Virus record (IMG/VR): IMGVR_UViG_3300045988_090152
Coordinates: 1-29,263 of that record
Source of the DNA: a virus
Length of the DNA stretch: 29,263 bases
Strand: one strand, 5' to 3'
Positions 1-29,263 of this stretch are shown one piece after another (position 1 is the first letter of the stretch; every line of letters starts with the position of its first letter). Both the position numbers and the translations under genes were made by a program. The notes under the pieces are model-generated. The model saw nothing but the letters and a program-made list of their open reading frames with translations, ran no database searches and was not told the DNA's origin.

Positions 1-254
1 CCATCATCAAATATAATGACTAATATAGAGTTACATTTACTAAGTATATCAAACTTATCCCTATTTATAATTGTAGTTGGATATTTATCGGATTTAAATC
101 TTCTCCTTTTAACTTCAATTATATAATCTATATTATTCCAAGTAAATGTTCCATCATATCTGGAATAATCGTCTTTACATCATTCTATTTCTATATTATA
201 TTTATCTTTAAATAGATTCTTTATAAAGACTAAGCTTCTTATATCTGTTTTCAT
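1..254 (-). CDS. hypothetical protein, possible PD-(D/E)xK-type nuclease (C-terminus beyond window edge)
   Basis: ATG 254-252 overlaps the TAA of the upstream gene (TAATG). The frame is open to position 1 only if TGA at 180-182 is sense. Own translation: MKTDIRSLVFIKNLFKDKYNIEIE-W-CKDDYSRYDGTFTWNNIDYIIEVKRRRFKSDKYPTTIINRDKFDILSK... The D...E-V-K spacing resembles a PD-(D/E)xK core (motif level only). Not in the ORF track. Confidence 0.45.
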
Positions 255-493
255 TATCTTACATTATGAATTTTTAAGGTTACATCACAATACTGTTCAT
301 ATAATTCAGATACTTCTGAACTTCCAGGATTATGCCACATTACAGAGTCTAATTTATGCTGGAGTTCTGCCTGTTCTAATCTAAGCTCAAATGTTTTAGT
401 TTGGTAGTCTCCATAAGCATTATATACTCTAATACCAGCTATTCCCATTAAAATAATCGTTGCAATAATTGCATATTTAAATATATTTTTCAT
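254..493 (-). CDS. small membrane-anchored protein, function unknown
   Basis: 79-aa track ORF, ATG 493-491, TAA 254-256. N-terminal hydrophobic helix (YAIIATIILMGIAGI). First gene behind the leftward promoter at 539-570. Confidence 0.6.
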   Translation of the reverse strand: MKNIFKYAIIATIILMGIAGIRVYNAYGDYQTKTFELRLEQAELQHKLDSVMWHNPGSSEVSELYEQYCDVTLKIHNVR

Positions 494-538
494 AATTTAT
501 AAAGTTTAATTGTTAATATTATGTCTTTTATTGTAATA

Positions 539-570
539 CAAAGATAATACATTTTTATCCAATCTCCAAA
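539..570 (-). promoter_or_regulatory. Bacteroidota-type promoter, leftward
   Basis: On the minus strand: TTTG (570-567), 20-nt spacer, TATCTTTG (546-539), i.e. -33 TTTG / -7 TAnnTTTG. About 45 nt upstream of ATG 493. The 16-mer ATGTATTATCTTTGTA (552-537, minus) is identical to 726-741 (plus). Confidence 0.6.
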
Positions 571-618
571 TTTTTTAACAACTTTTTCAAAAAAAATTTA
601 AAATTTTTCATAAAAATA

Positions 619-650
619 TTTGGAGATTTAAAAATAATGTTGTATATTTG
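619..650 (+). promoter_or_regulatory. Bacteroidota-type promoter P1, rightward
   Basis: TTTG 619-622, 20-nt spacer, TATATTTG 643-650. Part of a ~47-nt module (611-657) repeated at 700-746 and, inverted, at 576-530. Confidence 0.6.
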
Positions 651-707
651 TACTATGAAAGTAAGAGATAATAAATAAAAAATTTATTAAAAATAATTGC
701 AAAAATA

Positions 708-739
708 TTTGGAAATTGAAATTTTATGTATTATCTTTG
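708..739 (+). promoter_or_regulatory. Bacteroidota-type promoter P2, rightward
   Basis: TTTG 708-711, 20-nt spacer, TATCTTTG 732-739. Tandem copy 89 nt downstream of P1. Confidence 0.6.
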
Positions 740-805: not shown

Positions 806-814
806 ACCTTTACT

Positions 815-897: not shown

Positions 898-2616
898 ATG
901 AAAACTTATTTAAATAATTTAATCAATGAATTACCTACTAACTGCTTATTTGACAAAGGTAAAGTAGGATGTGGTGGAACTTCAATGGCTTTAGAGTGTG
1001 ATAAGCCTTATGTTATATGTGTTCCATTTGTAAGTTTAGTTGAGAATAAACTTGCTCAATATCCTAATGAAAGACGTAAAGAGCCTATTTTTGGAGTTTA
1101 TCAAGGTGTTACTAAGACAGATATTGAAGCTTATATATCTTCAGTTAAATGCCCTAAAATCATTGTTACTTATAATTCTCTTTATAAAGTAATAGAAGCA
1201 GTAAATCCTAAAGATTATAGCCTATTAATTGATGAATATCATATACTATTTAATCAATATAGTCTTAGAAGAGATGCAATTAAAGATGTATTAAAGACAT
1301 ATAGCTTATTTAAAGAATATACATTTATGACTGCTACTCCCTTAGAAGATGAATTTGTTTTAGATGAATTGTCTAAATTGCCATTAGTAAGACAAGAATG
1401 GGATGATGTTATTGAGACTAAAGTTCAGACTGTTAAATGCAAGAATGTAGAAGCTTCCACAATTAAGCTTATAAATGGATTTTTAAGTGGAAATGTTGAA
1501 GGTAATGCTTATATATTTGTTAACTCTGTTGACTTTATAAAGAATCTTATTTTAAAGGCTAAACTTACAGCAGATAACACAAGAGTAGTATATTCTAAGA
1601 ATAATAGAACTAAACTGCCAATTCAGAATTCTTCAGTAAATGATGAACCTAAGAAGATTAATTTATTGACTTCTACTGTATTTGAAGGTTCTGATATTTA
1701 TGATGAAAATGGAAGAATTATTGTAGTTAGTGATTCCTCTAAAGCTCAGACTCTTTTAGATATATCTACTTCAATTCAACAGATTGCTGGTAGAATTAGA
1801 AATAGTAAATATTTAAATTGGATTACTCATCTTTATTCAGCCACAAGATATGCAGAGATAGATTATGATACATTTAAAAATAATACATTAAAGAATATTG
1901 AAGAAACAAAGATTGCAGTTGAATCATACAATCAGCTTCCAGAAGTAGCTCGTAAGAAGATTACAGACTTTACAAGTGACACATATATTCAAATTAATGA
2001 GGATTATACCTTTGAATTTGACCCAAATATGGCTAAAGTAGATATATTCAATTTTAAGGTTGCAAGAGGTTTATACTCTGTAAGAGTTAATCTTACTAAT
2101 GAATATCTAAAGAATGGCTTTATAAAGGTTGCTGAATGTGAAGATAAATCTATTAAGATAGACCTTGAAGCTCCTAGTAAGTCATTTCAGGAGCTTATTA
2201 AAGATGTAAGAGCTGAATGGGAAACTAAATTTAAAGTTGGAACTCCTATATTAAATGAAGCTCTAATTAAATATCCTTGGTTAAATGATGCAATTAATAA
2301 ACTGGGATTTGAAAGAATGGCAACTTTGGGTTATTGCATTAAAGATATTAAAGAGGAACTTGTTAAAATATCAGATAAAAATATGCCAAATAAGGTTGCC
2401 AAATTACTTACAAGAGATATTCAGAATGGTATGTTCTACAATTTAGCTTTATTAAAGAATAGGATTGCTGATGTATATAAGACTTTAGGTATAAAGAAAA
2501 CTGCAAAGGCAACAGATATTGAACACTATTTTGAAGTTAGAAAATCAACTAAAACTGAAAAGGATGTTAGAAGCAAAGGATACATTATTATTAGACCAAG
2601 ATTCATATTTAAATAG
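898..2616 (+). CDS. SF2 (DExH-type) helicase-like protein with atypical Walker A
   Basis: 572-aa uninterrupted ORF with TAG stop. Motifs read from the translation: GKVGCGGTS (P-loop-like but lacking the Lys), LLIDEYH (motif II, DExH), FMTATP (motif III), QIAGRIRN (motif VI, QxxGRxxR). All four Trp are TGG and there is no TGA. Confidence 0.6.
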   Translation: MKTYLNNLINELPTNCLFDKGKVGCGGTSMALECDKPYVICVPFVSLVENKLAQYPNERRKEPIFGVYQGVTKTDIEAYISSVKCPKIIVTYNSLYKVIEAVNPKDYSLLIDEYHILFNQYSLRRDAIKDVLKTYSLFKEYTFMTATPLEDEFVLDELSKLPLVRQEWDDVIETKVQTVKCKNVEASTIKLINGFLSGNVEGNAYIFVNSVDFIKNLILKAKLTADNTRVVYSKNNRTKLPIQNSSVNDEPKKINLLTSTVFEGSDIYDENGRIIVVSDSSKAQTLLDISTSIQQIAGRIRNSKYLNWITHLYSATRYAEIDYDTFKNNTLKNIEETKIAVESYNQLPEVARKKITDFTSDTYIQINEDYTFEFDPNMAKVDIFNFKVARGLYSVRVNLTNEYLKNGFIKVAECEDKSIKIDLEAPSKSFQELIKDVRAEWETKFKVGTPILNEALIKYPWLNDAINKLGFERMATLGYCIKDIKEELVKISDKNMPNKVAKLLTRDIQNGMFYNLALLKNRIADVYKTLGIKKTAKATDIEHYFEVRKSTKTEKDVRSKGYIIIRPRFIFK

Positions 2617-2776
2617 AATTGCGGATATTAAAGAAACTCTTAAAAAGTCAGAAGATACTATTAAAGAGTTTGATAAGTGAATGAATGAATTTAAAGAGAA
2701 TTCTAAGAAATTAGGAGATATTATAGATAGAGTATTAGCACAAAGAGATTTTACATTTATTTCAAAATTTGATTAA
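2564..2776 (+). CDS. hypothetical coiled-coil mini-protein (70 aa if TGA 2678-2680 is Trp)
   Basis: Hand-translated: MLEAKDTLLLDQDSYLNRIADIKETLKKSEDTIKEFDK-W-MNEFKENSKKLGDIIDRVLAQRDFTFISKFD, TAA 2774-2776. Overlaps the helicase 3' end by 53 nt in another frame. TTG starts further upstream are possible. Alternatively two tiny ORFs split at TGA-ATG. Confidence 0.3.
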
Positions 2777-3057: not shown

Positions 3058-3095
3058 AAAAAGGAGGGTTATTTGCCCTCCTTTTCTTTTTTATT
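3058..3095. terminator. bidirectional rho-independent terminator between convergent units
   Basis: 10-bp stem AAAAGGAGGG (3059-3068) / CCCTCCTTTT (3076-3085), 7-nt loop, with T-runs following on both strands. The minus-strand HNH stop codon (3069-3071) lies in the loop. Confidence 0.75.
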
Positions 3096-3407
3096 AAACC
3101 TCTGATAATTACTTACTGCCGAATGTATAGCTTTATGACATACTGAACATAATGTTATCAAATCTTCCAAATGGTCTTGCTCCTCATATAAATTATCATA
3201 CCTCTTATGATGTACCGATAATGACCTGTTTCCGCCTTCCTCAACGCACCAATTACAAGTTTGGCAGTGGTAGTTATCTCGCAACAAAACTTGCTCTCTA
3301 ATCACCTTAAATTCCTTTGAGCGGATATATCTCTGGTACTTTAAATATTCTTCACTTCTTACTTTCCTCTTAGTCTTATGAAGCAATTTACTTGATTTGG
3401 AATCCAT
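3069..3407 (-). CDS. HNH endonuclease
   Basis: 112-aa ORF with CQTCNWC ... SVHHKRYDN ... LCSVCHKAIH (Cys pairs flanking an HH...N...H core). Basic N-terminus. Last gene of the minus-strand unit. Confidence 0.8.
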   Translation of the reverse strand: MDSKSSKLLHKTKRKVRSEEYLKYQRYIRSKEFKVIREQVLLRDNYHCQTCNWCVEEGGNRSLSVHHKRYDNLYEEQDHLEDLITLCSVCHKAIHSAVSNYQRFNKKEKEGK

Positions 3408-3409: not shown

Positions 3410-3862
3410 TTATATAATAGTAAATTTCTGTCGTCTTTGCATCCCGTCTTTATTCTTTAATCCCAAGTGTATTCAACTTGCTATACCATTCTTAGGCTTT
3501 TCATATATCAACTGGTCTCAATTTAATTCTTCGATAGCTTCAGCAATCCAACTTTGGAATACTTTCATATTACCATTAATTGGAGATATATCTGCTGCAT
3601 ACCCTGTTAAATGAGCAGAAGTTGAAGATCCTCCTACTGCTTTATTAAGCTCCTTATTTCTAAAACCAGAGGAAATCCTGATGCCTGCGTTACCAAGCTG
3701 ATTGTCATCACAATACTTTGCCCATCTCTCTCTTATTGGGTCTAAAAGCTTCTCGACCAACTCTATCAGGTGCTCTGTTATACTCTCATCTGGAGTGTTA
3801 TCTATATGCTTAATTGAAGCAGTATCAGATCTTGTTAATTCTTCGAGTGTGAAATACTTCAT
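3410..3862 (-). CDS. endolysin, M15-family (Peptidase_M15_3/VanY-like) zinc cell-wall peptidase, 150 aa with two TGA-Trp
   Basis: The track ORF (3518-3862) carries SGFRNKELNKAVGGSSTSAHLTGYAADI (H-x6-D). Reading through TGA 3518-3520 and 3473-3475 adds W-DQLIYEKPKNGIAS-W-IHLGLKNKDGMQRRQKFTII, then TAA 3410-3412, 2 nt before the HNH ATG. This supplies the expected C-terminal His. Confidence 0.8.
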
Positions 3863-4023
3863 TATTTAAGTATATCTTTAATCATAACATATCTATAAAA
3901 TAGATGTGAAGCCACACCTATTACAAGTAATACTACAGTAATCCAAAAAGGAATTACTTTGATTAGTAAACATATCAGCAGAATAATAACTACTGCAATT
4001 ACATATTTTAACCAATATTTCAT
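3862..4023 (-). CDS. holin-like protein (53 aa, two predicted TM helices)
   Basis: Hand-translated MKYWLKYVIAVVIILLICLLIKVIPFWITVVLLVIGVASHLFYRYVMIKDILK. The TAA overlaps the endolysin ATG (TAATG). Not in the track (too short). Confidence 0.55.
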   Translation of the reverse strand: MKYWLKYVIAVVIILLICLLIKVIPFWITVVLLVIGVASHLFYRYVMIKDILK

Positions 4024-4024: not shown

Positions 4025-4681
4025 TTATATTTTATTTAAAATTATACTTATCTGTATTCCAGCTCTTCTTAGATGTACTCAAGTATCATAAGGCATAGGT
4101 GTATCACAGAATGATAAACCTAAAATGCCAATATCTTTATCCTCAGTCTTTAAATAAAATACTGCTATTTCATTCACTCTGTTGGATTTAAATGCATAAT
4201 ATAATCTTGGATCATCTGCTTCTAAACTATCTATATTACCAAACCATCCATCATTCTTAGAAAACTCTATAATTGAAGTATAGTCAGATAACAGGAAGTC
4301 TTTATAATGGCTACTTACAGATCTTATTCCTGGTTTTACTTCCTCTGCATTCATTACTCCATAAGTAAATGGAAGTCCTCCTAATCCAGTAGTTCCATTA
4401 TGATATTCAATAACCCAAGCTCTATCAGCATTGGTACTTTGAAGCAATTCTTTAAGCTTATATTTAATCTTCAAAGTTGCTTCATTTCTTGCAATAGTTT
4501 TAGAATTGTGAGTTTGTTCAATATAGGTTACAACCTTATTATAAACAATAGAGGGATTAAGTGTAATAACCATTACATAGGATATAAATATTAATCCAAT
4601 CCCTGCTTTAAATATCTTTAGTAATCCATATTTATCTACTCATTCTAATACCTTTCCAAACCAGTTTAATTTATTTTCCAT
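4025..4681 (-). CDS. membrane-anchored protein of the lysis cassette, function unknown (218 aa, two TGA-Trp)
   Basis: ATG 4681-4679 overlaps the upstream TAA (TAATG). N-terminus MENKLNWFGKVLE-W-VDKYGLLKIFKAGIGLIFISYVMVITL... with TGA at 4640-4642. The track ORF ends at TGA 4079-4081. Read-through adds WVHLRRAGIQISIILNKI and TAA 4025-4027, 1 nt before the holin ATG. Confidence 0.65.
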
Positions 4682-5796: not shown

Positions 5797-6879
5797 TTAT
5801 TCAACTATTTTAGAATCAGCTGTATCTAAGCTAAATGGTGTAATTGTGATAGAATTCTTCATACCAAAGATTTTGTCAAATGTATCACAAATCTCTTTTT
5901 GCATAGGTTTAATCATCGTTCTATTATAGAGTTTAAATGATGAATTAAACTCTTGCTCATTAAATCCAGTAGAATCAGAGTTTATTCCAAATAAGTTAGG
6001 ATTAGCTCTAAATGCGCAGAATATCTGTTCTCTTGTCCTATCAGATAAAGCACTATATTTCTCATCAAAATCATCAGAGTCTAAACGTTCAATAGTAGTC
6101 TTATTTGTTTCATCATCATTATATGAAATAAGAACTCTACCAGCATTTTGAAATCCTGAGAATTTCTCATTAATATTCATCTCAATCTCTTCTTTAACTT
6201 CGTCTGTAGGCTGTCCATTATTAAAGTTAATGATAAGATTGCCCATAAATCCGTTATGAAGAGAATTTAGATGGAACTCATTAATATTCTTCTCAGTTTC
6301 GCAAGATAAGATAGCTGCACCATAAACAGGGACTGGATATACCTTTCTTGTTATATAGCCCTTATTATAAACAACGCTTGTAGGATTATCGTCTGAATAA
6401 TTAAATTTTGGATATTTGATAGCTTTAATAGACCAAGCAGACCAATCATCGGCATAATAGAATACTTCATTCTTTTCATCAGAACGAATCTTCATAAAGT
6501 CAAGATGATATATTTCTGAAACTCTACCTAACATATCTCTAATTATTTGTAAAGCATATCCTCCAAAAATCATCTTATCTTTAGATACTTTACGCATAAT
6601 ATCCATAATAGTCTCACCTTTCTTATTTACAGTTACTTCAAATCCTGGTGCATTACATATAACATCATTACCAACAATAAAGTCAGCAGTCCCATTAATG
6701 ATAGATTGAAGAGTAGCTACATTTAAATATAGATCCCATAAATATACAGGATAGCGATTATCTTCACCCCAAGAAATATAGTCCTTACCTCTAACTTTAC
6801 CTTCTACTGGCAATACGATGTTTGATACAATTACTGGATCAATTGCACTTAATTGTACTTTTGTTTTATTTTCGCTCAT
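5797..6879 (-). CDS. portal-like protein (360 aa)
   Basis: I start it at ATG 6879 (MSENKTKVQL...), a 14-nt overlap with the upstream gene end. The track start at 6936 lies inside the upstream CDS. The motif SWGEDNRYPVYLWDLYLNVATLQSIINGTADFIVG resembles small portal proteins (recollection only). Its placement far from terL is atypical. Confidence 0.5.
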   Translation of the reverse strand: MSENKTKVQLSAIDPVIVSNIVLPVEGKVRGKDYISWGEDNRYPVYLWDLYLNVATLQSIINGTADFIVGNDVICNAPGFEVTVNKKGETIMDIMRKVSKDKMIFGGYALQIIRDMLGRVSEIYHLDFMKIRSDEKNEVFYYADDWSAWSIKAIKYPKFNYSDDNPTSVVYNKGYITRKVYPVPVYGAAILSCETEKNINEFHLNSLHNGFMGNLIINFNNGQPTDEVKEEIEMNINEKFSGFQNAGRVLISYNDDETNKTTIERLDSDDFDEKYSALSDRTREQIFCAFRANPNLFGINSDSTGFNEQEFNSSFKLYNRTMIKPMQKEICDTFDKIFGMKNSITITPFSLDTADSKIVE

Positions 6880-7365: not shown

Positions 7366-8319
7366 CTATGCAGAAGCTAATGTCCAGTTCTTAGATGTAG
7401 CTAAAGCTTTTTGCTCTTCTGTAATAGTATTAAAGATAGTAGAATGGAATGTTATAGTTTGAGGATCTTTACCAGTTAAGTCAAGAACTCCATTAATAAT
7501 ATCTGTTATTGATTCGCTATTTAATGCTCTAAAATTAAATAAACTAAAACTTTTATCTGCACCTTCAATGCCTCCAAAATATGTAACATAACTATTTGCT
7601 GTACCACAAATAGCAGTATTACCTAAATTTCCAGATAAAGTAGCATTTGTTAATTTAATTTTCTCAACTCTAGTAATATAATCATAACTACTACTAAAAT
7701 AGTAATATAAACTTAATTGCCCATTAACTACTTCAACTTCAGGAATAATGCCATTTTCATTATTAGTTGAATAAAAAAAGAATTGCAAACTTGTAGTACC
7801 ATCTTCCTGTATATTAGTTATTTTTACTGAACTTGGAATACTTGTAGCTGAAAAAAATGTACGAGTTGAATACCCTCAGCTTGGACTATATTGATTAACT
7901 AACTCTATATTTCCTATAGTTCCTTTAAAATAAGAAAATGAATAGCTATTGCTTGCATCAAATTTTATATTATCAATTTTTACGTTAGTAGCATTTTCAA
8001 ATGCATAGTCTCCAGAATAGATAGTATCTAAGTTAATTTTATTTGATATATCAATAGGTTCTGGAAACTTAGCATCTCTAAAGAACGAAGGCATATTATT
8101 TGGAAGAGTATATTCAATATTACTATATTGTTCTACAGTAGTAGTAGCATTAGCAAATGTAAGTCCATAATCATTCAAATTAACCTTACCTCCTCCAGAT
8201 ATTTCTCCAATCTTTTCTGCATAACTTCTAAAGGTTGCAGTATCCTCAACAGCTGCATCTTTAATAGCACTCTTAGTGCCTTCAAGATACTCTAATTTAT
8301 CACTTATAGTATTTGCCAT
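7366..8319 (-). CDS. receptor-binding/tail-fibre-associated protein, LRR-like, paralogue 3 (317 aa, one TGA-Trp)
   Basis: Track ORFs 7876-8319 and 7366-7788 are in the same frame. The gap translates without TAA/TAG (W-GYSTRTFFSATSIPSSVKITNIQEDGTTS). C-terminal tail SITDIINGVLDLTGKDPQTITFHSTIFNTITEEQKALATSKNWTLASA is shared with 9220-10059 and 12809-13996. TAG stop. Confidence 0.7.
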
Positions 8320-9219: not shown

Positions 9220-10059
9220 TTAGTATGTTACTGACCAGCCTTTACTGGTGATTTGTGATTTTTGTTCCTCTGTTAATGAATTGTAAACAGTTTCATTCAA
9301 CTGAATTATTAAGTTATTATCTGTAGGATATAACCCATTTATAATATTATCTACAGACTGAGTAGTTAATGCAGGTAATTGAGATAAATCTAAGTTAAAA
9401 TCACTAGACTTTCCAATATTTAAAAAACCTCCCATATCAGTTAAATAGTTAAAAGGACCTGATGCAAATATATTCCTATAATCCTGTCACTTTTCTGCAT
9501 CGTATTGTGGTACTGATTCTAAAGATATACAACCTCTAAACATATAGTCTGTGGTTAATGCATTACTCGTATTTATATTTGGTGCGTTTTTTAAAGCACT
9601 ACAACCACTAAACATATAATGATATACATTAGCTATCTGATTATTAATATCTGGCACAGAAACTAAAGAGGAGCAGTTTTGAAACATTTGACTAAATTGA
9701 GTAAATCCAGACAATATATCAGGAACAATTTTTAAGTTACTACACCCATAAAATAAACCATTACCATTATTAATGTTTGCATTTGAAAAATAGGTCATAT
9801 CGGATACATCCTCAATAGAAGTGCTTTCGAATATACTATTATTACCTTTATACCAACTATTTACTGTACTTGCATCGCAATCAGTAATTTCATCTTGTCC
9901 AGGAAACAGATTATCTATAACTAACTGTTTAAACTCCAAACTTTTAAATACTATTGGAGTACAAATATTACTAGGCCAGACTTTGGTACTGCCCACATAA
10001 ATGGCAGTACCTTGTCTGTTACCTACATAAAAAGCTTTTAAATTATCTCGAATATTCAT
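9220..10059 (-). CDS. BspA/DUF285-type leucine-rich-repeat protein, paralogue 2 (279 aa, one TGA-Trp)
   Basis: Repeats LFYGCSNLKIVP / MFQNCSSLVSVP / MFSGCSALKNAP / MFRGCISLESVP. TGA 9487-9489 joins in frame to 9220-9435 (gap: W-QDYRNIFASGPFNYLTD). C-terminal SVDNIINGL...TEEQKSQITSKGWSVTY. Confidence 0.75.
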
Positions 10060-22200: not shown

Positions 22201-22678
22201 TATCAGCAGGTAAAACATTACCTTCCTCATCTGTAATAAAGTATTGTAAATCAGCAAGAGTTCTTAATGATCCATCTTCTTTATATTTAAGCCCATAGAA
22301 GAAATCTCCTAAGCCTCCATATAAAGTAATGTTATATGTAATGACCTTCTGTTTAATTTGTATGGTATTTAATTGCATATAACCAGATTCTATTAAATCT
22401 CCATTATCATAGATTCCAAAACCAACTCGTTTTGAAGGATTGAAATTAATACCGCTAAACTGACCGTCTTCAATATGTTGTAATCTATCTAATTTATAGA
22501 TTTCTCCAAATATCTTATTATTATTTTTGGTACCAGGTATAGAAATCGTCTTACTAAACGAGTTCTTGACTATAGTGGGGTTTTGGAAATCCTCAACTGT
22601 ATAAGTTATAGGAAGACTAATTCCCTCACTACAGTCAACCTCTTTATTTGCAATAAATAGTTTTATATTCTTTCTCAT
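19229..22678 (-). CDS. very large virion protein, tail-tip/baseplate candidate (1149 aa, three TGA-Trp)
   Basis: Track ORFs 21647-22678, 21032-21547 and 19229-20728 are all in one frame. Both gaps were translated by hand with no TAA/TAG. TGA at 21647, 21032 and 20735. N-terminus MRKNIKLFIANKEVDCSEGISLPITYTVEDFQNPTIVKNSFSKTISIPGT. Confidence 0.6.
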
Positions 22679-22679: not shown

Positions 22680-24884
22680 TTATTTTCTATATTTATCTTG
22701 AGAACTTTGTACTTCTATAGTATAATAAAACATATTTTTACCCTGATTACTATATGTCTTATACTCACAACTATTATTAGTAATTATTACAGGAATAATC
22801 TTATTATCCTCCAGATTATGTAAATATACCATAGTAGATTCTAATAAATGGTGCATCTTTGATGCTTGAGTATTTGTAAGATAATTAGTATATAAAGTCC
22901 ATTCTGGAACTATAGTGTTTAAATACTTATTTTTACTAAACTGAGAAGTGGTATTTAATACCTTTCTTACATAAGTCTGAGATTCAATTTGATCCGTTTG
23001 TTTAACATTACCTTGTACTAATAAACTATCCCATCCTCCATAAGCATTAGTATAATATAATACATAATTCTTATTAGTAGTATCAATCTGATAATTAATA
23101 GTTGTAGTAAAAGAGCCAGATTCAACAAATCCTATTTCATATTTACTCTTGCATTCCAAAAGTAAATTACCTAAAGGTTCTGCATAAGTATAACCATTAA
23201 TTCCTTGTCTTAATGTAATATCTACAGTAGTTGCTACTCCTTCAGGTGTAGTATAACGTCTATTAAGCACACCTTCACCAGTTGGGAATATCCAACTACA
23301 TAATACATACTGTCTTGAATCAACTAAAGTGTCAATAGGATCACTTAAGAAATAAGGCTTAGTTAAATCTGTATCTTTATAAGACCAATCATTAAAGAAT
23401 GTTACAGGCTTTTCACTACCGCTTGAAGTTATTAATGTAAAGGTTTTTAAATAGTTAGGTATAATTTCTGTCTTTCCAAAAGATGGAAATATAATGCCGT
23501 TATCTAAAAAGTCTTCAGATACATCATTAAGTAAAAATTGTACTCCTGTAGTATCAGGATATTTATAAGCTTTACCAGCATAAATAGTATCTCCTGCATA
23601 ATCAAGATGATATTCTATAAAATCATTTAAAGTTTCCTCTTCTCATATATAATCTTTCCATATTGGAGATATATCTGCTTTAACCTCTTGTACAATATTA
23701 AATGAAGTATTTATAACACTAGAGCCATTTTTTACTACTGTAACTCCGACTGTTGCTTTTCTTGAAGCATTACCTGTATTTTCTGTAGCATCAAAATTGA
23801 TACTTACAATATTCATACCTCCTGGAGTTCCTCTTTCTATTACTAACTCCATTTTACTTAACCAAGTCTGAGCATCTGCTGGAATTGCAAATACTACATC
23901 ATCTAAATTATCTGAGCCTGTACCATCTATCTTATATCTTCCTGCTGTATATCCAATACTAACACTGGACTTTAAAGATAAAGAAGTAGCTAACTTAGTA
24001 ATTGGAACTGTAGCATTTAATGTATATCCTCCAGAAGTTGTTGCAGTAACTAATGCAGCATAATTTTTAATACTGGTTGTAGCATTATCAGGAAAGCTAA
24101 TATTAAAGGTATTTAATGCAGTATTTTTTCCTATTCCAATACTTCCTGGACAATTAATATCAAATTCAGTAATTGCTTCATCTGTTACTGTAGTTGACAA
24201 TTGAAATTGTCCTGTAGTATTAGATGCAGCTCCATAAGTTCCAGATGATGGATTAACTATTAACTTCAAATCTTCTGGAATATCACTCTTTTCAATAGTA
24301 AAGCCATAACTATAAGAAATAAACTTATTAGTTTCATAATAAGCTCCTAATTGAATAGTTCCAGTAAGATTAGTATTTCATTGAGTATTAGCATCTACTG
24401 TAATCTTAAACTTAATAGAGCAGGAATCCCATTCTAATACCTCAACACTTACTAAAGCAGTAGCATTTACTACATCACAAGTTCATTTAATAATATCTGT
24501 TCTACTTAATATATATTCAACAGTATAAGTACCTCCAGTATTGGGCACTGTTATACTGCCATTTGCAGGATAATATCCAGGGGCTTTACTATGAAGATAA
24601 ACTGGCATAGTATCTTCCAATAAAGCAGTAGTATGTCCTCTTGGATAGAATCTGAATATTGTAGAAGAGTCTGTTGTAATCGTTGAGGGATTTCTAAAGT
24701 TAATAGTACAACCACTTGTACTTGCATTAGAAATAGTAACATCTAATGGACCCTCTTCTGAATAGTCATCTCCTCATAACCAATAATCATATACTCCTGT
24801 AAGACCCCATCCTGGATTTTCCCATTTAACAGGATATGTTCCTGTACTTCTTGGTATTCCTAATTTACTTGGTATAAATGTCAT
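22680..24884 (-). CDS. large virion protein with BACON/Ig-like central domain (734 aa, four TGA-Trp)
   Basis: ATG 24884 (MTFIPSKLGIPRSTGTYPVKWENPGWGLTGVYDYWL-W-GDDY...). TGA at 24774, 24483, 24378 and 23643. Joins track ORFs 23643-24269 and 22680-23270 in frame. The segment ...QTWLSKMELVIERGTPGGMNIVSINFDATENTGNASRKATVGVTVVKNGSS...IVQE resembles the BACON signature (W.L ... N.g..sR.a.v.v ... Q). Confidence 0.65.
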
Positions 24885-24886: not shown

Positions 24887-25366
24887 TTAAAAGTCTTTAA
24901 ATACATTATTAACTTGCGTTTCTAAATCTTTTGTAATTGCATCATCTAACAATGCAACAGCCGAAAGCTCATCTAAAGATTCTTCTAATATACGCTTTCC
25001 TTGTGTTCCTTGTAAATGAATCTTTCTTGCAACTAAGTATGCAAGTTGATCTGTAGATGGAAGTTTACCTCCATAAGGTCTTGGTAATACAGGTTTAGTT
25101 CTTACCCAATTCTTTATTTCACTAATAGGTGGAAATTTACCTGGAGATCTACCTTCTTCCAAATACTTTCAGTAATCTTGAATTTGTAAGCTGACTTCAT
25201 AAGATCCATCTTGATCCTCAACAATATAGTTTAAAGTATTACCTAATGTACCTGTATCATCAGCATTATTCTGTAATAACTTCTGTCTATATATTGAAGT
25301 CAATTGACTTCCATATTGTCTTAGTACTCCTTCAAGATTAGGGAATTTTAAATCTTGACTTGTCAT
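24887..25366 (-). CDS. virion morphogenesis/tail-completion-like protein (159 aa, one TGA-Trp)
   Basis: Track ORFs 25169-25366 and 24887-25162 are in the same frame: ...SLQIQDY-W-KYLEEGRSPGKFPPISEIKNWV... Loosely reminiscent of HK97 gp10-type proteins (Y..E.G). First gene after the terminator and element C. Confidence 0.55.
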
Positions 25367-25803: not shown

Positions 25804-26288
25804 AAAAAAACCATAATGTCATTTATGACAGTAATTGGAATTTTATCATATAACTTATCTGCCAATTCAATTAAATCATAGCCTTCATTATATTTCTTAC
25901 CTTTTGGAATTAAGAAGCATAAAAAGATATATTTAAAATTCTTTTGGTAGTCTTTATAAAAGTTCTGAAAATCTATATATTGAGCAGCAGTCATCTGCCT
26001 AATATTTAATTGTACAGTATATTTATCTCCAGCAATAGTATATTCAGTTTCTGGAGCCTTAGCTTTGTATTTATTGATTATAAATTGAACTTTATTAAGT
26101 TCTACAGCTAGTTCATCTAACCCTATACTCAAAAGAGTATCTCTTGTTTTATCTGGATCATCTGAAAGTAATGCACATATCTCAATACTTCTATCTAAAT
26201 CAGTCATCTTTGCATTACTGTTTATAAACTCCATTAGAGCTTCATATTGTTTAAGACTTACGTCTTCCCATTTAGTTGCTATATTCAT
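25629..26288 (-). CDS. chaperone-like protein, zero-frame product (219 aa)
   Basis: ATG 26288-26286 overlaps the terL TAA (TAATG). TAG stop at 25629-25631. The segment LNIRQMTAAQYIDFQNFYKD loosely recalls tail-assembly-chaperone families (recollection only). Contains the T9 run at 25810-25802. Confidence 0.55.
   Translation of the reverse strand: MNIATKWEDVSLKQYEALMEFINSNAKMTDLDRSIEICALLSDDPDKTRDTLLSIGLDELAVELNKVQFIINKYKAKAPETEYTIAGDKYTVQLNIRQMTAAQYIDFQNFYKDYQKNFKYIFLCFLIPKGKKYNEGYDLIELADKLYDKIPITVINDIMVFFCNLLAALTVSTLISSIREMKKMLKKEKDPVKKYQLRKMIVQSRKTVSLVQNGTGFVE
25802..25811 (-). other. slippery homopolymer (G TTT TTT TTT, U9) in X XXY YYZ register
   Basis: Plus-strand A9 at 25802-25810. 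Zero-frame codons are GTT TTT TTT TGC. Confidence 0.6.
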
Positions 26289-27535
26289 TATTTAATTGCA
26301 ATATTATAAGTTCCTTTATTTGTATTTAAAGCATCATAAGCTAACATTAAAGATATACAAGTATCATCATTAAATCCAGATGGAGCATTATATGATACAT
26401 TTCCAGTCTTTGGATTATAACTGGCTTCATATAGTCTTAATTCATTTAATAGTTTATCATCCTTTAAAATACCAATCTTTTCATTTTCTAATGCAGCTTG
26501 TAGCTTATTTACAATAGCTGCCTTAGACTTATTAGTAGTTAAAAACTTAACTATCCGTAATTTAGGATTCCTTTTTACAAGAATATCATAAAACACTGAA
26601 CCTATTGAGTTTTGTTCGACTTGAACTATCTTTATAAATCCCTGATACTCAGTAAATATATTTGTCAGTAAATCAACTTGTTCTGTTGGAGTTTTGTCGT
26701 TAAAATACTTTATAAAGACCATCTGCCCATTTTCATTTAAAGCTGTAATACAAGTATAGTCTTTACCAGAACCAGTAGCCCAGTCAACTCCAATATAAAG
26801 ATTATGATATTCAGGTTTTTTATCAATTATGCAGTTAGATATATTATTAAAGAGACAACCATCATCATCTGCAAACTCCCCAAGATATTCAGTTCTAAAT
26901 TTATTTTTAGAGGTTGTAAGGCGATACATTTCAAGTTTATCCTCACTCAATAGCATAGAGGTATCTTCTAATGCTCAATCAAAGGATTGATAATATTTGC
27001 TAAAATTGCCATCAAAGCCTTTTTTAAAGCATTCATAAAAGAATCCTTCTCTAAACCTTGGAGTACTAATTATAAGTATCGGAGCATTCCATACATCAGT
27101 GGTAGGCTTAATAATTTCAAATACTTCATCTTTAAGATAAGCTGCCTCATCAAGTACTAATAATCCACTAACGGAGAATCCTCGTAATGAATCCATTTGT
27201 TCTCCAGATCTAAATAGTATAGAACTGCCATTATTAAACTCTAATTCTAATAAGGTTTCATTCTTTCTTCTTAATATATCAGAGTCTATAACAGCTTGTA
27301 CAAGTTCTTTAAATACCTTTCTAGATTGTCCAAGAGTTGGTTCAACTATACAATTAACACTCCCAGGATAATTTATAGCGAATCTCAATAATTCATTTTC
27401 TGCCAAGAACGATTTACCTACCTGCCTCTTTGCTTTAATTGTAAAGATTTTACCAGACCTATATGAGTCATTCATAGCAGTATGTACCTTTAATTGATAG
27501 ATAAATGGGCTATATCCTTTATATATTTTTGTCAT
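26288..27535 (-). CDS. terL: terminase large subunit (one TGA-Trp at the ATPase/nuclease junction)
   Basis: Track ORF 26975-27571 has Walker A KAKRQVGKS and Walker B LLVLDEAAY. Track ORF 26288-26956 has nuclease-type IGVDWATGSGKDYT ... SGFNDDTC. The two are in the same frame and joined by TGA 26975-26977 (...YYQSFD-W-ALEDTSMLLSEDK...). Start taken at ATG 27535 (MTKIYKGY, 17-nt overlap with terS); ATG 27571 is an alternative. Confidence 0.85.
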
Positions 27536-27962
27536 TGTTAATTGGATCTCCAAATTTAAACTGGACTTCATTATTCTGAATAGCTACAATAGTCTCAGGT
27601 TGATTTAATCCAAACATACTATTTATAGTCTTAATAATCTCATTTGCAGCTCTAATATCTCCCTTACTAATAGCAGTATCCAGTAATGATTCCAATCTTG
27701 ATAATTGTATATGTCTAAGATTTTTTATAAGGTTATCATTCTTTTCAGCAATTATCTTATAAGCTTCTCCAATATATCTTGCAGCCGTTGATTGGCTTAC
27801 ATTATATTTACTTTGAAGTTCTTCACTTACTTTATTCCTTGACCATCCTTTGTTAAATAACCTTGCAGCATAAAGATATTTAGTCTTTACTTCGTCTATT
27901 TGTTCCTTTTCTACCTCTGCCTTTTTCGGTCTCCCTACTTTCTTCTTTATTTGCTCCTTCAT
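27519..27962 (-). CDS. terS: terminase small subunit-like DNA-binding protein
   Basis: The track start at 27968 is a TTG; the first ATG is at 27962 (MKEQIKKKVGRPKK...). Basic N-terminus plus HTH-like WSRNKVSEELQSKYNVSQSTAARYI. Immediately upstream of terL. Confidence 0.6.
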   Translation of the reverse strand: MKEQIKKKVGRPKKAEVEKEQIDEVKTKYLYAARLFNKGWSRNKVSEELQSKYNVSQSTAARYIGEAYKIIAEKNDNLIKNLRHIQLSRLESLLDTAISKGDIRAANEIIKTINSMFGLNQPETIVAIQNNEVQFKFGDPINNDKNI

Positions 27963-28212
27963 CCTCAATAGTTTTTAGTTTTTCAACATATTCAAAGTAG
28001 TAAACTCCAAGTCTCTTTATAAGGTTAAGAACACAAGTTCCACAGTTTATATTCATTTTATATGGCTGCTCTATTAGTTCCTCATAAATAGCTCTCATCC
28101 TTTCAGTATCTTCTTTTTGGATGTTACGACAATAGTTAGCTCTAACAGCACATTTAAACCTATTATCGAATTTACTTAAATATTCATACTGTTCTTTTGT
28201 TAATTCTTTCAT
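27880..28212 (-). CDS. hypothetical Cys-rich protein (110 aa)
   Basis: ATG 28212. Cys at 21, 28, 57 and 60 (C-x6-C ... C-x2-C, possible zinc site). The last ~28 codons overlap terS out of frame and are low-complexity (EESRETEKGRGRKGTNRRSKD). Confidence 0.5.
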   Translation of the reverse strand: MKELTKEQYEYLSKFDNRFKCAVRANYCRNIQKEDTERMRAIYEELIEQPYKMNINCGTCVLNLIKRLGVYYFEYVEKLKTIEDEGANKEESRETEKGRGRKGTNRRSKD

Positions 28213-28234
28213 TTTTATTTAAAATATATTATTT

Positions 28235-28561
28235 TTAATCCAAGTATTTATAAACTATATCTATTAGTTTGGTAATCATATCTTTAATTAGAATCATACA
28301 ATCCTTTATAACTGGAGTCATAAATGCAATTAAAGCAATATATGCAATCATTAAGAAGCTTAATTGTCCAGTTACTAAGATATATAGTAAACTTGCCCAC
28401 CAAGTGCAGCATAGAGAACATCCAAATAAAGGTATAGACCAATCAGTATATTTAACTCCAGGATATAGTTTACTTCATACCCATCTATTTGCCTTGTCCA
28501 TAGCTCCAGATAAATCAATGCAGAAGACAAGAATAATAGCTATAAAAAGTATGCTTAACAT
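28235..28561 (-). CDS. integral membrane protein (108 aa, about 3 TM, one TGA-Trp), not in the ORF track
   Basis: Hand-translated MLSILFIAIILVFCIDLSGAMDKANRWV-W-SKLYPGVKYTDWSIPLFGCSLCCTWWASLLYILVTGQLSFLMIAYIALIAFMTPVIKDCMILIKDMITKLIDIVYKYLD. TGA 28475-28477, TAA 28235-28237. The ATG overlaps the upstream stop by 7 nt. The CxxC..WW membrane motif recalls DUF1360-type proteins (weak). Confidence 0.6.
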
Positions 28562-28800
28562 AATCTCTCTCTTATTTGTTTAATAAATCTCTGAATAGTC
28601 GTATGACTAATTCCCAGAATCTTCCCAACTTCTCTATAACTTCGATATTCAGCATATAAGATAATTATAGTCTTATCTGCTCTATTTAATGCCTCTCATT
28701 TCGGATAAATTGCAAGTAATCTATCATCCATCTCTGTAAAGGTATCTATTTCAAAGTTATACTCAATTAATAAATCATCAATATTAATCTTCTGCTTCAT
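28555..28800 (-). CDS. sigma-70 region-4-like HTH protein (81 aa, one TGA-Trp), not in the ORF track
   Basis: Hand-translated MKQKINIDDLLIEYNFEIDTFTEMDDRLLAIYPK-W-EALNRADKTIIILYAEYRSYREVGKILGISHTTIQRFIKQIRERLC. TGA 28696-28698, TAA 28555-28557. The pattern L...r.iiiL.....sY.EiakiLGiS..Ti is typical of sigma region 4 / LuxR-type HTH. Confidence 0.65.
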
Positions 28801-29092
28801 TTAACCAATCCTCTAAATTATCCGTTTGTTGTTCTAATGGCTCTTTAAATATTTCATAGTACTTTTTATATTGGTAATAGTATCTACTATTCTTAGAAAA
28901 CCAATTATTCTTAAATACTCTTGTAATCCAATACTTCAGCTCATTCTTACTATCTAATGACTGAAGCTTGGAATTAGATGTTTCCAGAAGTGCAATTAAA
29001 CACATCTGGAAACAATCGTCATCCATCCCAAATTTAACCTTTAGTTCTAAGCAGAATTCATAATATTTGGTAAGTATTTCATTATTCGTCAT
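28784..29092 (-). CDS. sigma-70 region-2-like protein (102 aa)
   Basis: Track ORF. DDDCFQMCLIALLE ... LKYWITRVFKNNWFSKNSR resembles ECF-type region 2 (AeD..Qe..i.l. ... .W...ia.N...d..R). Its 3' end overlaps the region-4-like ORF by 17 nt in another frame. Confidence 0.5.
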   Translation of the reverse strand: MTNNEILTKYYEFCLELKVKFGMDDDCFQMCLIALLETSNSKLQSLDSKNELKYWITRVFKNNWFSKNSRYYYQYKKYYEIFKEPLEQQTDNLEDWLNEAED

Positions 29093-29263
29093 TTCTTATA
29101 TAATTACTAAAAGTTGTGTCTATTTCTAATTTAATTGCTTTCTTTAAAGATAACTCTGTTTTTAAAGAGTATTTATATTCTCCTCCAAAATCAGTTGTAC
29201 TTCTTCCATATTTCATTGAATCTTTAATAAAAGCTCTTTTTACATCTTTATAAATATAAACTC
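29082..29263 (-). CDS. hypothetical protein, 3' part only (N-terminus beyond window edge)
   Basis: Open frame from the window edge: ...VYIYKDVKRAFIKDSMKYGRSTTDFGGEYKYSLKTELSLKKAIKLEIDTTFSNYIRNDE, TAA 29082-29084. Overlaps the next ATG (29092) by 11 nt. Confidence 0.4.
   Translation of the reverse strand, partial: VYIYKDVKRAFIKDSMKYGRSTTDFGGEYKYSLKTELSLKKAIKLEIDTTFSNYIRNDE

Follow-up and report, generated by a model that had tools for sequence, protein, structure and literature searches.

The 29,263-nt stretch of viral DNA analysed in this study (the window) is the complete, circularly permuted genome of a small tailed phage and not a fragment, and comparison with related phages showed that UGA specifies tryptophan (translation table 4) in its predicted proteins. 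Taken together, the data probably describe a tRNA-less phage that reads UGA as Trp in a Bacteroidota host with the standard code, i.e. a mismatch between the codes of phage and host. How TGA is decoded without a suppressor tRNA in a seemingly standard-code Bacteroidales host is the puzzle posed by this phage, and its small, complete genome offers a compact model for the decoding question in TGA-recoded phages. TGA-to-Trp gut phages, many of them without a detectable suppressor tRNA, have already been published, the first reportedly by Ivanova et al. in 2014 and Yutin et al. in 2021. Public gene calls also already translate the clade of the window with TGA as a sense codon.

Genome completeness and organisation

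The comparison covered about 60 close relatives in IMG/VR and about 130 fetched loci. In relatives L002, L003, L013, L017, L021 and L029, position 29263 directly adjoins position 1, and the reading frame of g32 crosses the circular junction and closes with TAA; thus, no further genome lies outside the window. The phage lacks an integrase and was seen in well over 100 assemblies, its clade being widespread in the human gut. The features discussed below are listed in Table 1.

Table 1. Features of the phage genome and positions of in-frame TGA codons (plus-strand numbering).
Feature	Coordinates	Strand	Description	In-frame TGA
Whole genome	1..29263		GC 30.7%; 36 genes, 32 on the minus strand and 4 not
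g32	1..254 + 29263..29248	-	89 aa, PD-(D/E)xK-like motif	180-182 (codon 25)
g31	254..493	-	79-aa membrane protein; first gene after the minus-strand host-type promoter
Promoter facing g31	539..570	-	Bacteroidota-type, TTTG -33, TAnnTTTG -7
Promoter facing g30, copy 1	619..650	+	Bacteroidota-type; repeats D4, I1, I3
Promoter facing g30, copy 2	708..739	+	Bacteroidota-type
g30	898..2616	+	572 aa, SF2-helicase-like replication protein	none
sA	2564..2776	+	Conserved, about 70 aa, start uncertain	2678-2680
sB	2779-2913	+	Small gene after sA
sC	2915-3055	+	Small gene after sB
g29	3069..3407	-	HNH endonuclease	none in window
g28	3410..3862	-	Peptidase_M15_3 endolysin	3518-3520 (codon 115), 3473-3475 (codon 130)
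Holin-like membrane protein	3862..4022	-	About 52 aa; TAATG overlap with endolysin start	none
g27	4025..4681	-	218 aa, N-terminal transmembrane segment	4640-4642, 4079-4081
g24	5797..6879	-	Portal protein	none in window
g22	7366..8319	-	Tail-fibre or receptor-binding-like protein	7876-7878
g19	9220..10059	-	BspA-type LRR / DUF285 tail protein	9487-9489
g18	10061..12586	-	841-aa tail fibre	12104-12106
g16	12809..13996	-	LRR_5 tail protein	13370-13372
g15	14080..14604	-	Virion protein	14530-14532
g14	14643..15548	-	Major capsid protein (MCP)	none
g13	15571-16173	-	Scaffold-like protein	none
g12	16187-16780	-	S78_2 prohead protease	none
g11	16893..19226	-	Tape measure protein	18591, 18492, 18312
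g10	19229..22678	-	1149-aa tail protein	21647, 21032, 20735
g09	22680..24884	-	734-aa tail protein, weak BACON-like segment	24774, 24483, 24378, 23643
g08	24887..25366	-	159 aa	25169-25171
g06	26288..27571	-	Large terminase (TerL); start at 27571, or 27535 per most public gene calls	26975-26977 (codon 199)
g03	28235-28561	-	Membrane protein	28475
g02	28555-28800	-	Sigma region-4-like HTH protein	28696

TGA as a sense codon

All 24 plus-strand TCA triplets noted in the initial annotation proved to be in-frame TGA codons inside minus-strand frames bounded by TAA or TAG only; the sole addition was a 25th, on the plus strand (2678-2680), in sA. The 25 codons are spread over 16 of the 36 genes (44%). 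While the frames themselves held 24 TGA and no TAA or TAG codons, the two off-frames held 94 and 577 TGA and 636 and 899 TAA/TAG. As had been claimed, no coding sequence ends in TGA: TAA and TAG terminate 27 and four of the 32 genes tallied, the 32nd (g32) ends with TAA across the junction, and the four small genes added later all stop at TAA. The five TAATG stop-start overlaps described earlier (254, 3862, 4681, 12809 and 26288) were all real. Gene calling under both codes gave the expected gain, the coding fraction rising from 0.84-0.87 under table 11 to 0.957 (95.7%) under table 4. On read-through, 59 table-11 fragments merged into 36 genes, the median gene length increased from 339 to 502 nt, and the longest frames grew from 681, 502 and 473 aa to 1162, 853 and 784 aa.

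Read-through also restored TerL, the endolysin and the tape measure protein to full length. The endolysin regained the His residue predicted for it, since the third zinc ligand, His132, lies beyond both TGA codons and is invariant in 25 homologues. The read-through of terL was likewise confirmed, but not the accompanying idea that it joins ATPase and nuclease halves, because the Terminase_6N domain spans residues 49-243 and codon 199 is thus within the ATPase domain.

Assignment of TGA to tryptophan

The codons of relatives at the 24 sites, counted in distinct contexts, were TGA (128), TGG (79), Phe (9), Leu (5), Tyr (3), Thr (2) and Arg (1); none was Gly, TAA or TAG. Conversely, a TGA of a relative stood opposite TGG of the window in 154 of the 172 contexts in which the window codon was not TGA, covering 44 distinct Trp sites, and opposite a Gly codon in four. 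At column 130 of the endolysin, Trp was invariant in 25 homologues, including standard-code ones, among which P0232 and P0198 translate correctly under table 11; column 115 was F/Y, with W in two rows. The column of TerL codon 199 contained Phe in distant homologues and TGA (9) or TGG (2) in relatives, and the g15 site was TGG (15), Leu, Tyr or Phe. The g32 codon was TGA in 12 of 12 distinct relative contexts, and the sA position was W in every relative aligned at the protein level (ELDKW followed by M or I). These results agree with the initial choice of Trp (table 4) over Gly and with its expectation that Trp and aromatic residues would dominate the TGA columns.

A Gly reading would imply a code-25 host of the Absconditabacteria or Gracilibacteria. 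Code-25 phages do exist in human microbiomes, and a distant TerL relative (L142, 28% identity) is found in a Gracilibacteria genome. However, none of the 99 codons other than TGA that relatives carry at the 24 sites specified Gly, and both the 154 to 4 ratio of TGG to Gly and the invariant endolysin Trp contradict it. If TGA were a true stop and the genome degraded or frame-split, 25 of 25 frames would not be expected to run on without TAA or TAG into complete proteins, nor would the recoded frames be conserved across about 60 diverged genomes. The readings of TGA as Gly, selenocysteine or a true stop are, thus, effectively refuted already.

Usage of TGA

TGA/(TGA+TGG) was 0.24 in the window (about 25% of Trp codons) and 12-60% across relatives, whereas the A-ending share in the Lys, Glu, Gln, Leu and Arg pairs was 0.60-0.88. 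Among the distinct Trp-codon contexts of the clade, TGA accounted for 1/102 in MCP, 0/56 in g15, 0/11 in the scaffold, 2/23 in the protease, 1/38 in the helicase g30 and 0/9 in g31, and consistent avoidance was limited to these genes. The list of TGA-free genes in the initial annotation, thus, holds clade-wide for capsid, scaffold, protease and helicase, but not for the portal (19% TGA) and the HNH endonuclease (78%), the latter being variable, with other sequence in its place in close relatives. TGA decoding appears to work yet to be costlier than TGG, because TGA is a minority Trp codon despite the strong A-bias elsewhere and is all but missing from the genes with the highest expression. Its low share and near-absence from MCP, g15, scaffold, protease, helicase and g31 support a code mismatch, as do the TGA-bearing 44% of genes and the standard-code sister phage described below. 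No +4 context bias marking competition with RF2 was detected across the clade.

Host

Promoters, translation signals and homologues point strongly to a host within the Bacteroidota, most probably of the Bacteroidales, and not to one of the Mollicutes, as the initial annotation had also concluded. Perfect TTTG-N17-23-TAnnTTTG sites (3/3) lie in the single divergent intergenic region of the genome in the right orientations, and in 17 distinct relatives the density of this motif was 3.87 per kb inside the region and 0.046 per kb outside (84-fold). Shine-Dalgarno-like motifs stand upstream of 2 of 32 genes, no more often than the background rate. Homologues of the endolysin and the helicase occur in Bacteroidota genomes: the closest cellular homologues of the endolysin (51-54% identity) belong to contractile-injection loci that also contain Mfa_like_1 and HU-HIG genes, and g30, which had no Pfam or PHROG match, has homologues at 44-50% identity that include one in a Hymenobacter chromosome (45%) and one in a TAG-recoded prophage. 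TerL homologues (39-41% identity) are present in long Bacteroides MAG contigs, and the roughly 80 species-representative genomes in which TerL homologues were found included no Mollicute. In addition, one subclade of the small phage has tail-fibre DNA in common with TGA-recoded crAss-like phages. Since the phage encodes a peptidoglycan peptidase, its host has a cell wall. No CRISPR spacer, integrated copy or isolate providing a direct host link was found. We infer, less firmly, that the host uses the standard code, which would produce a phage-host mismatch like those already described in other gut phages.

Search for decoding machinery

The initial annotation had anticipated that the phage carries its own tRNA(UCA) or release-factor machinery elsewhere in its genome. 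This did not hold, as the genome is complete, no tRNA was found in the window by ARAGORN or Rfam (E <= 5), and the genome has no gene for RF1, TrpRS or a tRNA; about 130 loci of related phages likewise yielded no suppressor tRNA with ARAGORN. Because the genome is demonstrably complete, the missing tRNA is not attributable to partial assembly. A cryptic, highly divergent tRNA-like suppressor overlooked by standard tools is very improbable. Such an escape from detection has been suggested for divergent suppressors (Borges et al., 10.1101/2021.08.26.457843; PMC12386605), and one candidate with a tca anticodon (24556-24630) reached 80% of the ARAGORN threshold. This candidate, however, is inside the coding sequence of g09, has mismatched acceptor pairs, lacks the T-loop consensus and belongs to a set of 15 noise-level calls obtained at this setting (92 at the next lower threshold). 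Rfam gave no tRNA-like match at E <= 5, and the 4.3% of the genome that is non-coding is already filled by promoters, terminators and a repeated palindrome.

Possible routes of UGA reading

Since the phage has no tRNA, the reading of UGA must presumably depend on an element that cannot be recognised as a tRNA gene. We consider it most likely that a host Trp-tRNA would read UGA, and an early-module product may weaken termination by RF2. The early module (g30, g31, sB, sC and neighbours) sets the window phage apart from a standard-code sister phage, whose structural genes follow the same order, and the promoter-proximal g30 and g31 are virtually TGA-free throughout the clade; the early module is, thus, a conceivable source. 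No candidate code-switch gene could be named, and g30 and g31 are no universal switch because a recoded distant relative (L034) lacks both. The sister also has almost all other genes in common with the window phage, which counts against a code switch.

The main competitor, to which we give a clearly smaller though real chance, is that the host itself belongs to an unrecognised code-4 lineage mirrored by the phage, with no phage machinery needed. TGA is already present in g32 and sA, which lie close behind the host-type promoters, so UGA reading is seemingly needed from the start of infection, and this fits a native UGA-reading host better than a late code switch. The absence of tRNAs from all clade members, the nearly identical gene set of the standard-code sister and the TGA recoding of the unrelated crAss-like lineage with common tail-fibre DNA point the same way, and many table-4 phages simply have the code of their host (Cook et al., PMC11210395). 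On the other hand, promoter, ribosome-binding-site and homologue evidence all indicate Bacteroidota, and the peptidoglycan peptidase a walled host. TGA is known to dominate among the Trp codons of native code-4 organisms, whereas in this phage it is the minority codon at 31% GC and avoided in highly expressed genes. According to the abstract of a 2026 preprint (10.64898/2025.12.01.691617), bacterial UGA-to-Trp reassignment had been known solely from Bacillota, Pseudomonadota and Verrucomicrobiota, to which the preprint adds Actinomycetota; Bacteroidota is missing from that list.

Suppression in trans by a co-resident element is unlikely, the leading candidate being a persistent opal-suppressing crAss-like phage with tRNA-Sup(UCA). 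Sup-TCA tRNAs have been described in Zeta crAss-like phages (PMC12386605). The small-phage contigs 133025, 105798, 140557 and 082853 match fibre DNA of TGA-recoded crAss-like phages (contigs of 85-170 kb) over 0.4-2.3 kb at 90-97% identity, and in one sample small and crAss-like phages co-assemble into chimeric contigs. Against this, the fibre g18 of the window shares only about 36% identity with its crAss-like counterpart, and a phage with all its structural genes that occurs in so many assemblies would pay heavily for strict dependence on co-infection.

Comparison with known recoded phages

Like the code-4 gut phages of Borges et al. and Cook et al., the window phage has in-frame TGA at Trp, mainly in structural, lysis and packaging genes, and close relatives with the standard code. 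Many of those phages also lack a detectable suppressor tRNA, which was present in only 35% (Borges et al., 10.1101/2021.08.26.457843) or 15% (Cook et al. 2024, PMC11210395) of code-4 genomes. It differs from them in its very small (29 kb), demonstrably complete genome and in having TGA in promoter-proximal early genes too, and from Jade phages in lacking RF1, TrpRS and tRNA. Zeta crAss-like phages (proposed Echekviridae) resemble it in TGA-to-Trp recoding of structural and lysis genes, predicted Bacteroidales hosts and GC content (30-37%), but are podovirus-like Crassvirales of 155-177 kb with 17-26 tRNAs, sometimes including Sup-TCA (PMC12386605); the window phage has a tape measure (siphovirus-like) and an unrelated Terminase_6-type TerL. 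In Mycoplasma and Spiroplasma phages, whose code 4 is native to the host, TGA likewise means Trp without need of a suppressor tRNA, and GC is low. Their hosts, however, have no peptidoglycan, while the window phage codes for an M15 endolysin and a holin and has Bacteroidota-type promoters, no Shine-Dalgarno sequences and TGA in the minority.

Garnet and Amethyst are clades of small (34 +/- 5 kb) recoded phages, with Garnet prophages in Prevotella (Borges et al., 10.1101/2021.08.26.457843). Judged by published description, they share with the window phage a similar size, a Bacteroidetes host, a single recoded block of structural and lysis genes and a genome with most of its genes on one strand. 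Unlike the TGA-recoded window phage, which has neither integrase nor tRNA, their published representatives are TAG-recoded and temperate, with suppressor tRNAs on their maps. The TAG-recoded prophage with the g30 homologue (L224) resembles Garnet in its integrase, tRNA attachment site and standard-code host.

Reading frames across TGA codons

All 24 plus-strand TCA triplets listed in the initial annotation are present in the window (29,263 bp, GC 30.7%), and each is an in-frame TGA in a minus-strand frame bounded by TAA or TAG only. A 25th in-frame TGA, overlooked in that annotation, lies on the plus strand in the small gene sA, and its position is W in all aligned relatives. The 25 codons are spread over 16 of the 36 genes (44%). 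Neither TAA nor TAG was found in frame, the two off-frames having 636 and 899 of them; for TGA the counts were 24 in frame and 94 and 577 off frame. The observation of 24 in-frame TGAs is correct and statistically overwhelming. TGA never terminates a gene in the window: 27 of the 32 tallied genes end at TAA, as does g32 across the circular junction, and the other four end at TAG, while the four small genes added after the tally all have TAA stops. The five TAATG stop-start overlaps described earlier were also found.

The two translation tables were compared using a curated gene set. Under table 4, 95.7% of the window was covered by 36 genes with a median length of 502 nt, whereas table 11 gave 59 fragments covering 84-87%, with a median of 339 nt; the expected gain in coding density was thus obtained. 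The longest frames grew from 681, 502 and 473 aa to 1162, 853 and 784 aa once TGA was taken as sense, and TerL (g06), the endolysin and the tape measure protein aligned with their homologues over the full length across the TGA sites.

Identity of the residue encoded by TGA

The window proteins were aligned with ca. 60 related IMG/VR contigs of about 29-33 kb and the codons of the relatives were read, each distinct sequence context being counted once. At the 24 TGA sites of the window, the relatives carried TGA (128), TGG (79) and codons for Phe (9), Leu (5), Tyr (3), Thr (2) and Arg (1), so that TGG made up 79 of the 99 non-TGA codons; Gly, TAA and TAG did not occur at these sites among the aligned relatives. 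Where relatives had TGA opposite a different codon of the window, that codon was TGG in 154 of 172 contexts, representing 44 different Trp sites. In the Peptidase_M15_3 endolysin (g28), every aligned homologue, standard-code ones included, has Trp in the column of TGA-130, and His132, the third zinc ligand located 3' of this codon, is invariant too. At TGA-115 the aligned residue is Phe or Tyr, except for Trp in two rows, and at the TGA of TerL it is Phe in homologues of ca. 50% identity. On these comparative sequence grounds, the codons of the relatives together with the columns of the standard-code homologues, the table-4 assignment made initially holds: TGA is a sense codon for Trp in the window phage, and the comparison excludes Gly (code 25), selenocysteine and genuine termination. 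A code-25 phage of Absconditabacteria or Gracilibacteria, in which UGA is read as Gly, was rejected on the lack of Gly at the 24 sites and on the share of genes with TGA, which is 44% as compared with about 90% expected.

Full-length TerL, g09 and endolysin of the clade are present in public protein collections, with truncated table-11 versions beside them; automated gene callers therefore already treat TGA of this clade as sense. In practice, annotation with table 11 yields a shortened endolysin and breaks up TerL and the tail genes.

Completeness of the genome and search for decoding machinery

Most published code-4 phage genomes show no suppressor tRNA, a lack commonly put down to incomplete assembly or to tRNAs that escaped detection. 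The window, however, is a complete, circularly permuted genome, because its position 29263 is directly joined to position 1 in a 98%-identical relative (L002) and in many others, and because g32, which runs past the left end, has its TAA stop five codons inside the right end. With ARAGORN, the window gave neither a tRNA nor a tmRNA, whether treated as linear or as circularised; ca. 130 loci of relatives were likewise free of suppressor tRNAs, the sole tRNA being a tRNA-Leu in a distant phage of 56% GC. In Rfam searches of the window at E <= 5, nothing tRNA-like was found among the matches, which were attributable to chance, one of them being the bidirectional terminator between g29 and g30. 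Domains of release factors or aminoacyl-tRNA synthetases were likewise not found with Pfam and PHROGs in 31 proteins, a set that leaves out g17, g20, sA-sC and the holin-like ORF. The initial annotation had placed the decoding machinery elsewhere in the genome; since the genome is complete, there is no elsewhere, and this expectation was wrong.

A cryptic suppressor RNA would keep UGA decoding within the phage genome, and in view of the ARAGORN and Rfam results it is considered highly improbable. Relaxed ARAGORN runs, also in its mitochondrial and intron modes, returned noise-level calls only (15 at 80% of the threshold and 92 at 70%), and the single call with a tca anticodon was rejected because it is malformed and situated within the coding sequence of g09.

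The window phage bears on how a stop codon is decoded as sense in standard-code hosts, and it removes the explanation by incomplete assembly. It is complete, small (29 kb, 36 genes) and highly prevalent, its sequenced relatives number in the dozens, and a sister phage with the same structural genes uses the standard code; clear host-type promoters and a short list of candidate early genes make the question experimentally tractable.

Relation to known recoded phages

Recoding of TGA to Trp and of TAG to Gln is established in gut phages of standard-code hosts. A suppressor tRNA(UCA), RF1 or TrpRS encoded by the phage is frequent, though not universal, in published code-4 phages: TGA suppressor tRNAs were present in only 35% of code-4 genomes in Borges et al. 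(10.1101/2021.08.26.457843), and Sup-TCA was present in 15% of table-4 phages in Cook et al. (PMC11210395), who counted 46 table-4 vOTUs in UHGV. Eight recoded clades were described by Borges et al. (10.1101/2021.08.26.457843), including small ones of about 34 kb such as Garnet and Amethyst, which the window phage resembles in genome size, host phylum and layout. The recoding in the window is hence not a novel phenomenon; the phage is an unusually clean and compact instance of recoded phages without a suppressor tRNA. When 24.9 kb of the window was compared with GenBank phages at the nucleotide level, no match was obtained, and the best cultured matches of its TerL were Thermus and Halorubrum phages (25-28% identity). 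Unlike Crassvirales, which have crAss-type TerL, portal and MCP and genomes of about 100-190 kb, the window phage has a 29-kb genome, a Terminase_6N/6C TerL and a tape measure protein, and membership in Crassvirales was ruled out by these features.

Distribution of TGA among genes

TGA accounts for 24 of the 99 Trp codons (ca. 24%) in the 32 tallied window genes, the TGA of sA being extra, while the other A/G-ending codon pairs of the window are 60-88% A-ending. The close relatives are all recoded, with TGA making up 12-60% of their Trp codons. When distinct contexts were counted clade-wide, TGA was nearly absent from the genes for the major capsid protein (1/102), g15 (0/56), the scaffold (0/11) and the protease (2/23), as well as from the helicase-like gene g30 (1/38) and the small membrane protein gene g31 (0/9), the last two each being the first gene after a host-type promoter. 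Of the Trp codons in genes for tail, lysis and terminase proteins and in small regulatory genes, 30-97% were TGA on the same count. Among the genes initially listed as TGA-free, avoidance was borne out in relatives for the helicase, capsid, scaffold and protease genes, whereas the portal and HNH genes use TGA there (19% and 78%), so that the lack of TGA from these two genes of the window is incidental. The stable intermediate fraction of TGA and its exclusion from the most highly expressed genes suggest that TGA is decodable yet costlier than TGG.

Leaky read-through in competition with RF2 was considered and rejected: a weak signal at the +4 nucleotide in the window alone (T depleted, p = 0.04) was gone clade-wide, where no preference was found (T 25% vs 26%; chi-square p = 0.07).

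Host of the window phage

The promoter motif TTTG-N17-23-TAnnTTTG (-33 TTTG / -7 TAnnTTTG) has three matches in the whole genome, all correctly oriented and all in its one divergent region, the 404 nt that separate g31 from g30, where 0.03 would be expected. It is kept in 17 of 17 distinct relatives at 3.87 per kb in this region and 0.046 elsewhere (84-fold). An SD-like 4-mer precedes only two of 32 window genes, and A is found at -3 in 26 of 32; the phage family as a whole is without SD sites, as compared with ca. 40% in the Bacillota controls L101 and L102 (a crude measure throughout). The closest cellular homologues of the endolysin (51-54% identity) belong to contractile-injection loci with Mfa_like_1 and HU-HIG genes at their flanks, which we take to be hallmarks of Bacteroidales. 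Furthermore, a full-length homologue of g30 (45% identity) lies in a Hymenobacter chromosome, and TerL homologues of 39-41% identity are found in Bacteroides MAG contigs of 189 kb and 587 kb (Bacteroides prophages). No integrated copy of the window phage was found, the longest contigs with an identical TerL being ca. 33 kb. Together with the tail-fibre sharing described below and the presence of a peptidoglycan peptidase and a holin, these features, of which the TerL, endolysin and fibre links are indirect, strongly indicate that the host is a member of Bacteroidota, as had been proposed, rather than a Mollicute.

A Mollicute phage using code 4 natively was rejected since the M15_3 endolysin (with an intact H-D-H triad) and the holin are present, TGA is the minority Trp codon, and no Mollicute relatives were found among 80 GTDB loci with TerL homologues. 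Relatives at 48-49% TerL identity were found in GTDB bins of Bacteroidia (60% GC), Acutalibacteraceae and Clostridia, leaving host assignment from bins ambiguous; the Acutalibacteraceae and Clostridia bins are probably mis-binned phage contigs, because these relatives, in common with the other family members, have no SD sites.

M15 homologues in the contractile-injection loci (L219-L223 and L230-L232) are located between PAAR/gp25 and Mfa_like_1, beside sheath, tube and baseplate genes, and this placement suggests that the M15 peptidase may be a conserved component or cargo of such systems.

If the host itself read UGA natively, no phage function would be called for. We infer instead that the host uses the standard code, because only a minority of Trp codons are TGA, highly expressed genes avoid this codon, the share of genes containing it (44%) agrees with published mismatch cases, and the group of the crAss-like partner has published members with their own suppressor tRNA. 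Moreover, Bacteroidota are not among the phyla with reported UGA-to-Trp in bacteria that are listed in 10.64898/2025.12.01.691617. Native UGA reading by the host is therefore regarded as unlikely.

Tail-fibre DNA shared with crAss-like phages

In four contigs of the small-phage clade, 0.4-2.3 kb of tail-fibre DNA is 90-97% identical to that of a family of TGA-recoded phages on contigs of 85-170 kb. TerL of the latter family has its matches among the Crassvirales of Bacteroides, Flavobacterium and Cellulophaga, and opal-suppressing Zeta crAss-like phages of Bacteroidales have been described (PMC12386605). This link was unexpected, and it would imply that unrelated TGA-recoded phages have recently exchanged DNA while in the same host cells. 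The tail fibre of the window itself (g18) is about 36% identical in protein to the crAss-like fibre, and a search for g18 that was aimed at large phages found it in the small-phage clade only. No GenBank record matched the crAss-like partner. Suppression borrowed from a co-resident opal-suppressing crAss-like phage would fit the exchange of fibre DNA; as the source of UGA decoding in the window phage, we consider it distinctly improbable.

A 148.6-kb contig, IMGVR_UViG_3300045988_175865 (L233/L184/L013/L053), was considered as a prophage that would reveal the host. It consists of a TGA-recoded crAss-like phage and a complete small-phage genome joined at the 3' end of the shared tail-fibre gene. 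The 193-kb ENA LIJU14 scaffold_39 (L226) is 100% identical in both parts with a different join and a 2.1-kb difference; the two contigs are therefore chimeras from one sample, not prophages, and the candidate was rejected as an assembly chimera.

Candidate mechanisms of UGA decoding

A standard-code sister, IMGVR_UViG_3300029905_000019 (L225 and L072; 30,128 bp, 27% GC), has no in-frame TGA, uses TGA as a stop twice and carries no tRNA. Orthologues of g01-g27 are kept in the same order, while the early/replication module and the lysin differ, making this phage a useful comparator for a code-switch gene. The differing part comprises the early module (g29-g32, g30 and sA-sC). Our best guess is that an early phage product weakens RF2 and that the Trp-tRNA of the host would then read UGA. 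The TGA-free state of g30 and g31 throughout the clade is consistent with this. Against RF2 weakening, the next downstream genes, g32 and sA, already hold TGA, the distant TGA-recoded relative L034 is recoded yet lacks g30 and g31, and no candidate early gene has a recognisable function. No gene was singled out as present in all recoded members and absent from the standard-code ones; no universal switch gene emerged because L034 lacks g30 and g31 and g32 contains TGA.

The other reading is that the phage has no code-switch machinery and borrows UGA decoding, either from some gut Bacteroidales that would read UGA efficiently as Trp or from cells in which a persistent opal-suppressing crAss-like phage has recoded translation beforehand. 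The swapping of tail-fibre DNA with crAss-like phages of the opal-suppressing type bears on this reading. We know of no report of efficient UGA-as-Trp reading by gut Bacteroidales, and borrowed decoding, taking both sources together, is held to be possible though doubtful. If crAss-recoded cells were the source, the in-frame TGAs would act as a sensor limiting late-gene expression to cells already recoded.

L034 is temperate and encodes a Bacteroidota-style tyrosine integrase that is TGA-free from its likely start (MRTTFNIGF...), a parallel to the TAG-recoded prophages of Borges et al., whose integrases are reported to avoid the recoded codon; the GH108-type lysin of L034 contains six TGAs. 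A homologue of g30 (46% identity) is present in a TAG-recoded prophage on the 132-kb ENA LEMO22 scaffold_71 (L224), with 13 in-frame TAGs in TerL, three in the portal gene and none in the integrase gene. This prophage is integrated at a tRNA-Thr(CGT) gene and adjoins glnA and terC of a standard-code host.

Gene organisation and small elements

The gene order and the minor features are listed in the table. No integrase was found in the window.

Gene order, small elements and related features of the window phage and its relatives
Feature	Position	Strand	Remarks
g31, g32, g01 and g02 (sigma-factor-like pieces), g03-g05, TerL, g07, g08		-	start of the transcription order
Two large tail proteins, tape measure, S78_2 protease, scaffold-like, major capsid, g15		-	middle
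LRR/BspA-type and fibre proteins, portal, g25-g27, holin-like, M15 endolysin, HNH endonuclease		-	end
g30 (SF2-helicase-like), then sA, sB, sC		+
sA, sB, sC	2564-3055	+	three small genes 3' of the helicase-like gene; kept in relatives; fill an apparent gap of ~450 nt
In-frame TGA of sA	2678-2680	+
g29/g30 terminator	about 3051-3118		bidirectional
HNH gene g29	3069-3407	-	unrelated sequence instead in L002
g01, g02	28555-29092	-	17-nt overlap
~50-nt motif, copy 1	813-862		upstream of g30
~50-nt motif, copy 2	16833-16882		upstream of g12
~50-nt motif, copy 3	25435-25484		upstream of g08; opposite orientation
Call with tca anticodon	24556-24630
Integrase of L034	6217-7404 of L034	-
Shared tail-fibre DNA	16360-18615 of L234		with L058, L207/L051/L027, L211/L065 and L050; subclade TerL 81-84% identical to that of the window
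Truncated endolysin entries			P0147, P0160, P0170, P0171, P0217, P0230, P0239, P0364/P0365

The products of g01, with a region-2-like W/F-rich segment, and g02, with a Sigma70_r4-like HTH, look like a split or two-piece sigma factor; orthologues of both genes are also present in standard-code relatives. The motif of ~50 nt, which has inverted ends (TGTAACyTTTTTAC ... TAAAAAnGTTrCA), might serve in regulation or as a late-promoter element, or might form a hairpin. Besides g29, extra HNH_3/NUMOD and GIY-YIG homing-endonuclease genes occur in relatives (L213-L218 and L226-L229) at several positions, including inside the portal region, which points to active homing-endonuclease traffic in the clade. 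The truncated endolysins of 127-129 aa in public databases, labelled 'putative chitinase' or 'YcbK (DUF882)', end at the TGA without the catalytic His and are annotation artefacts of table-11 gene calling.
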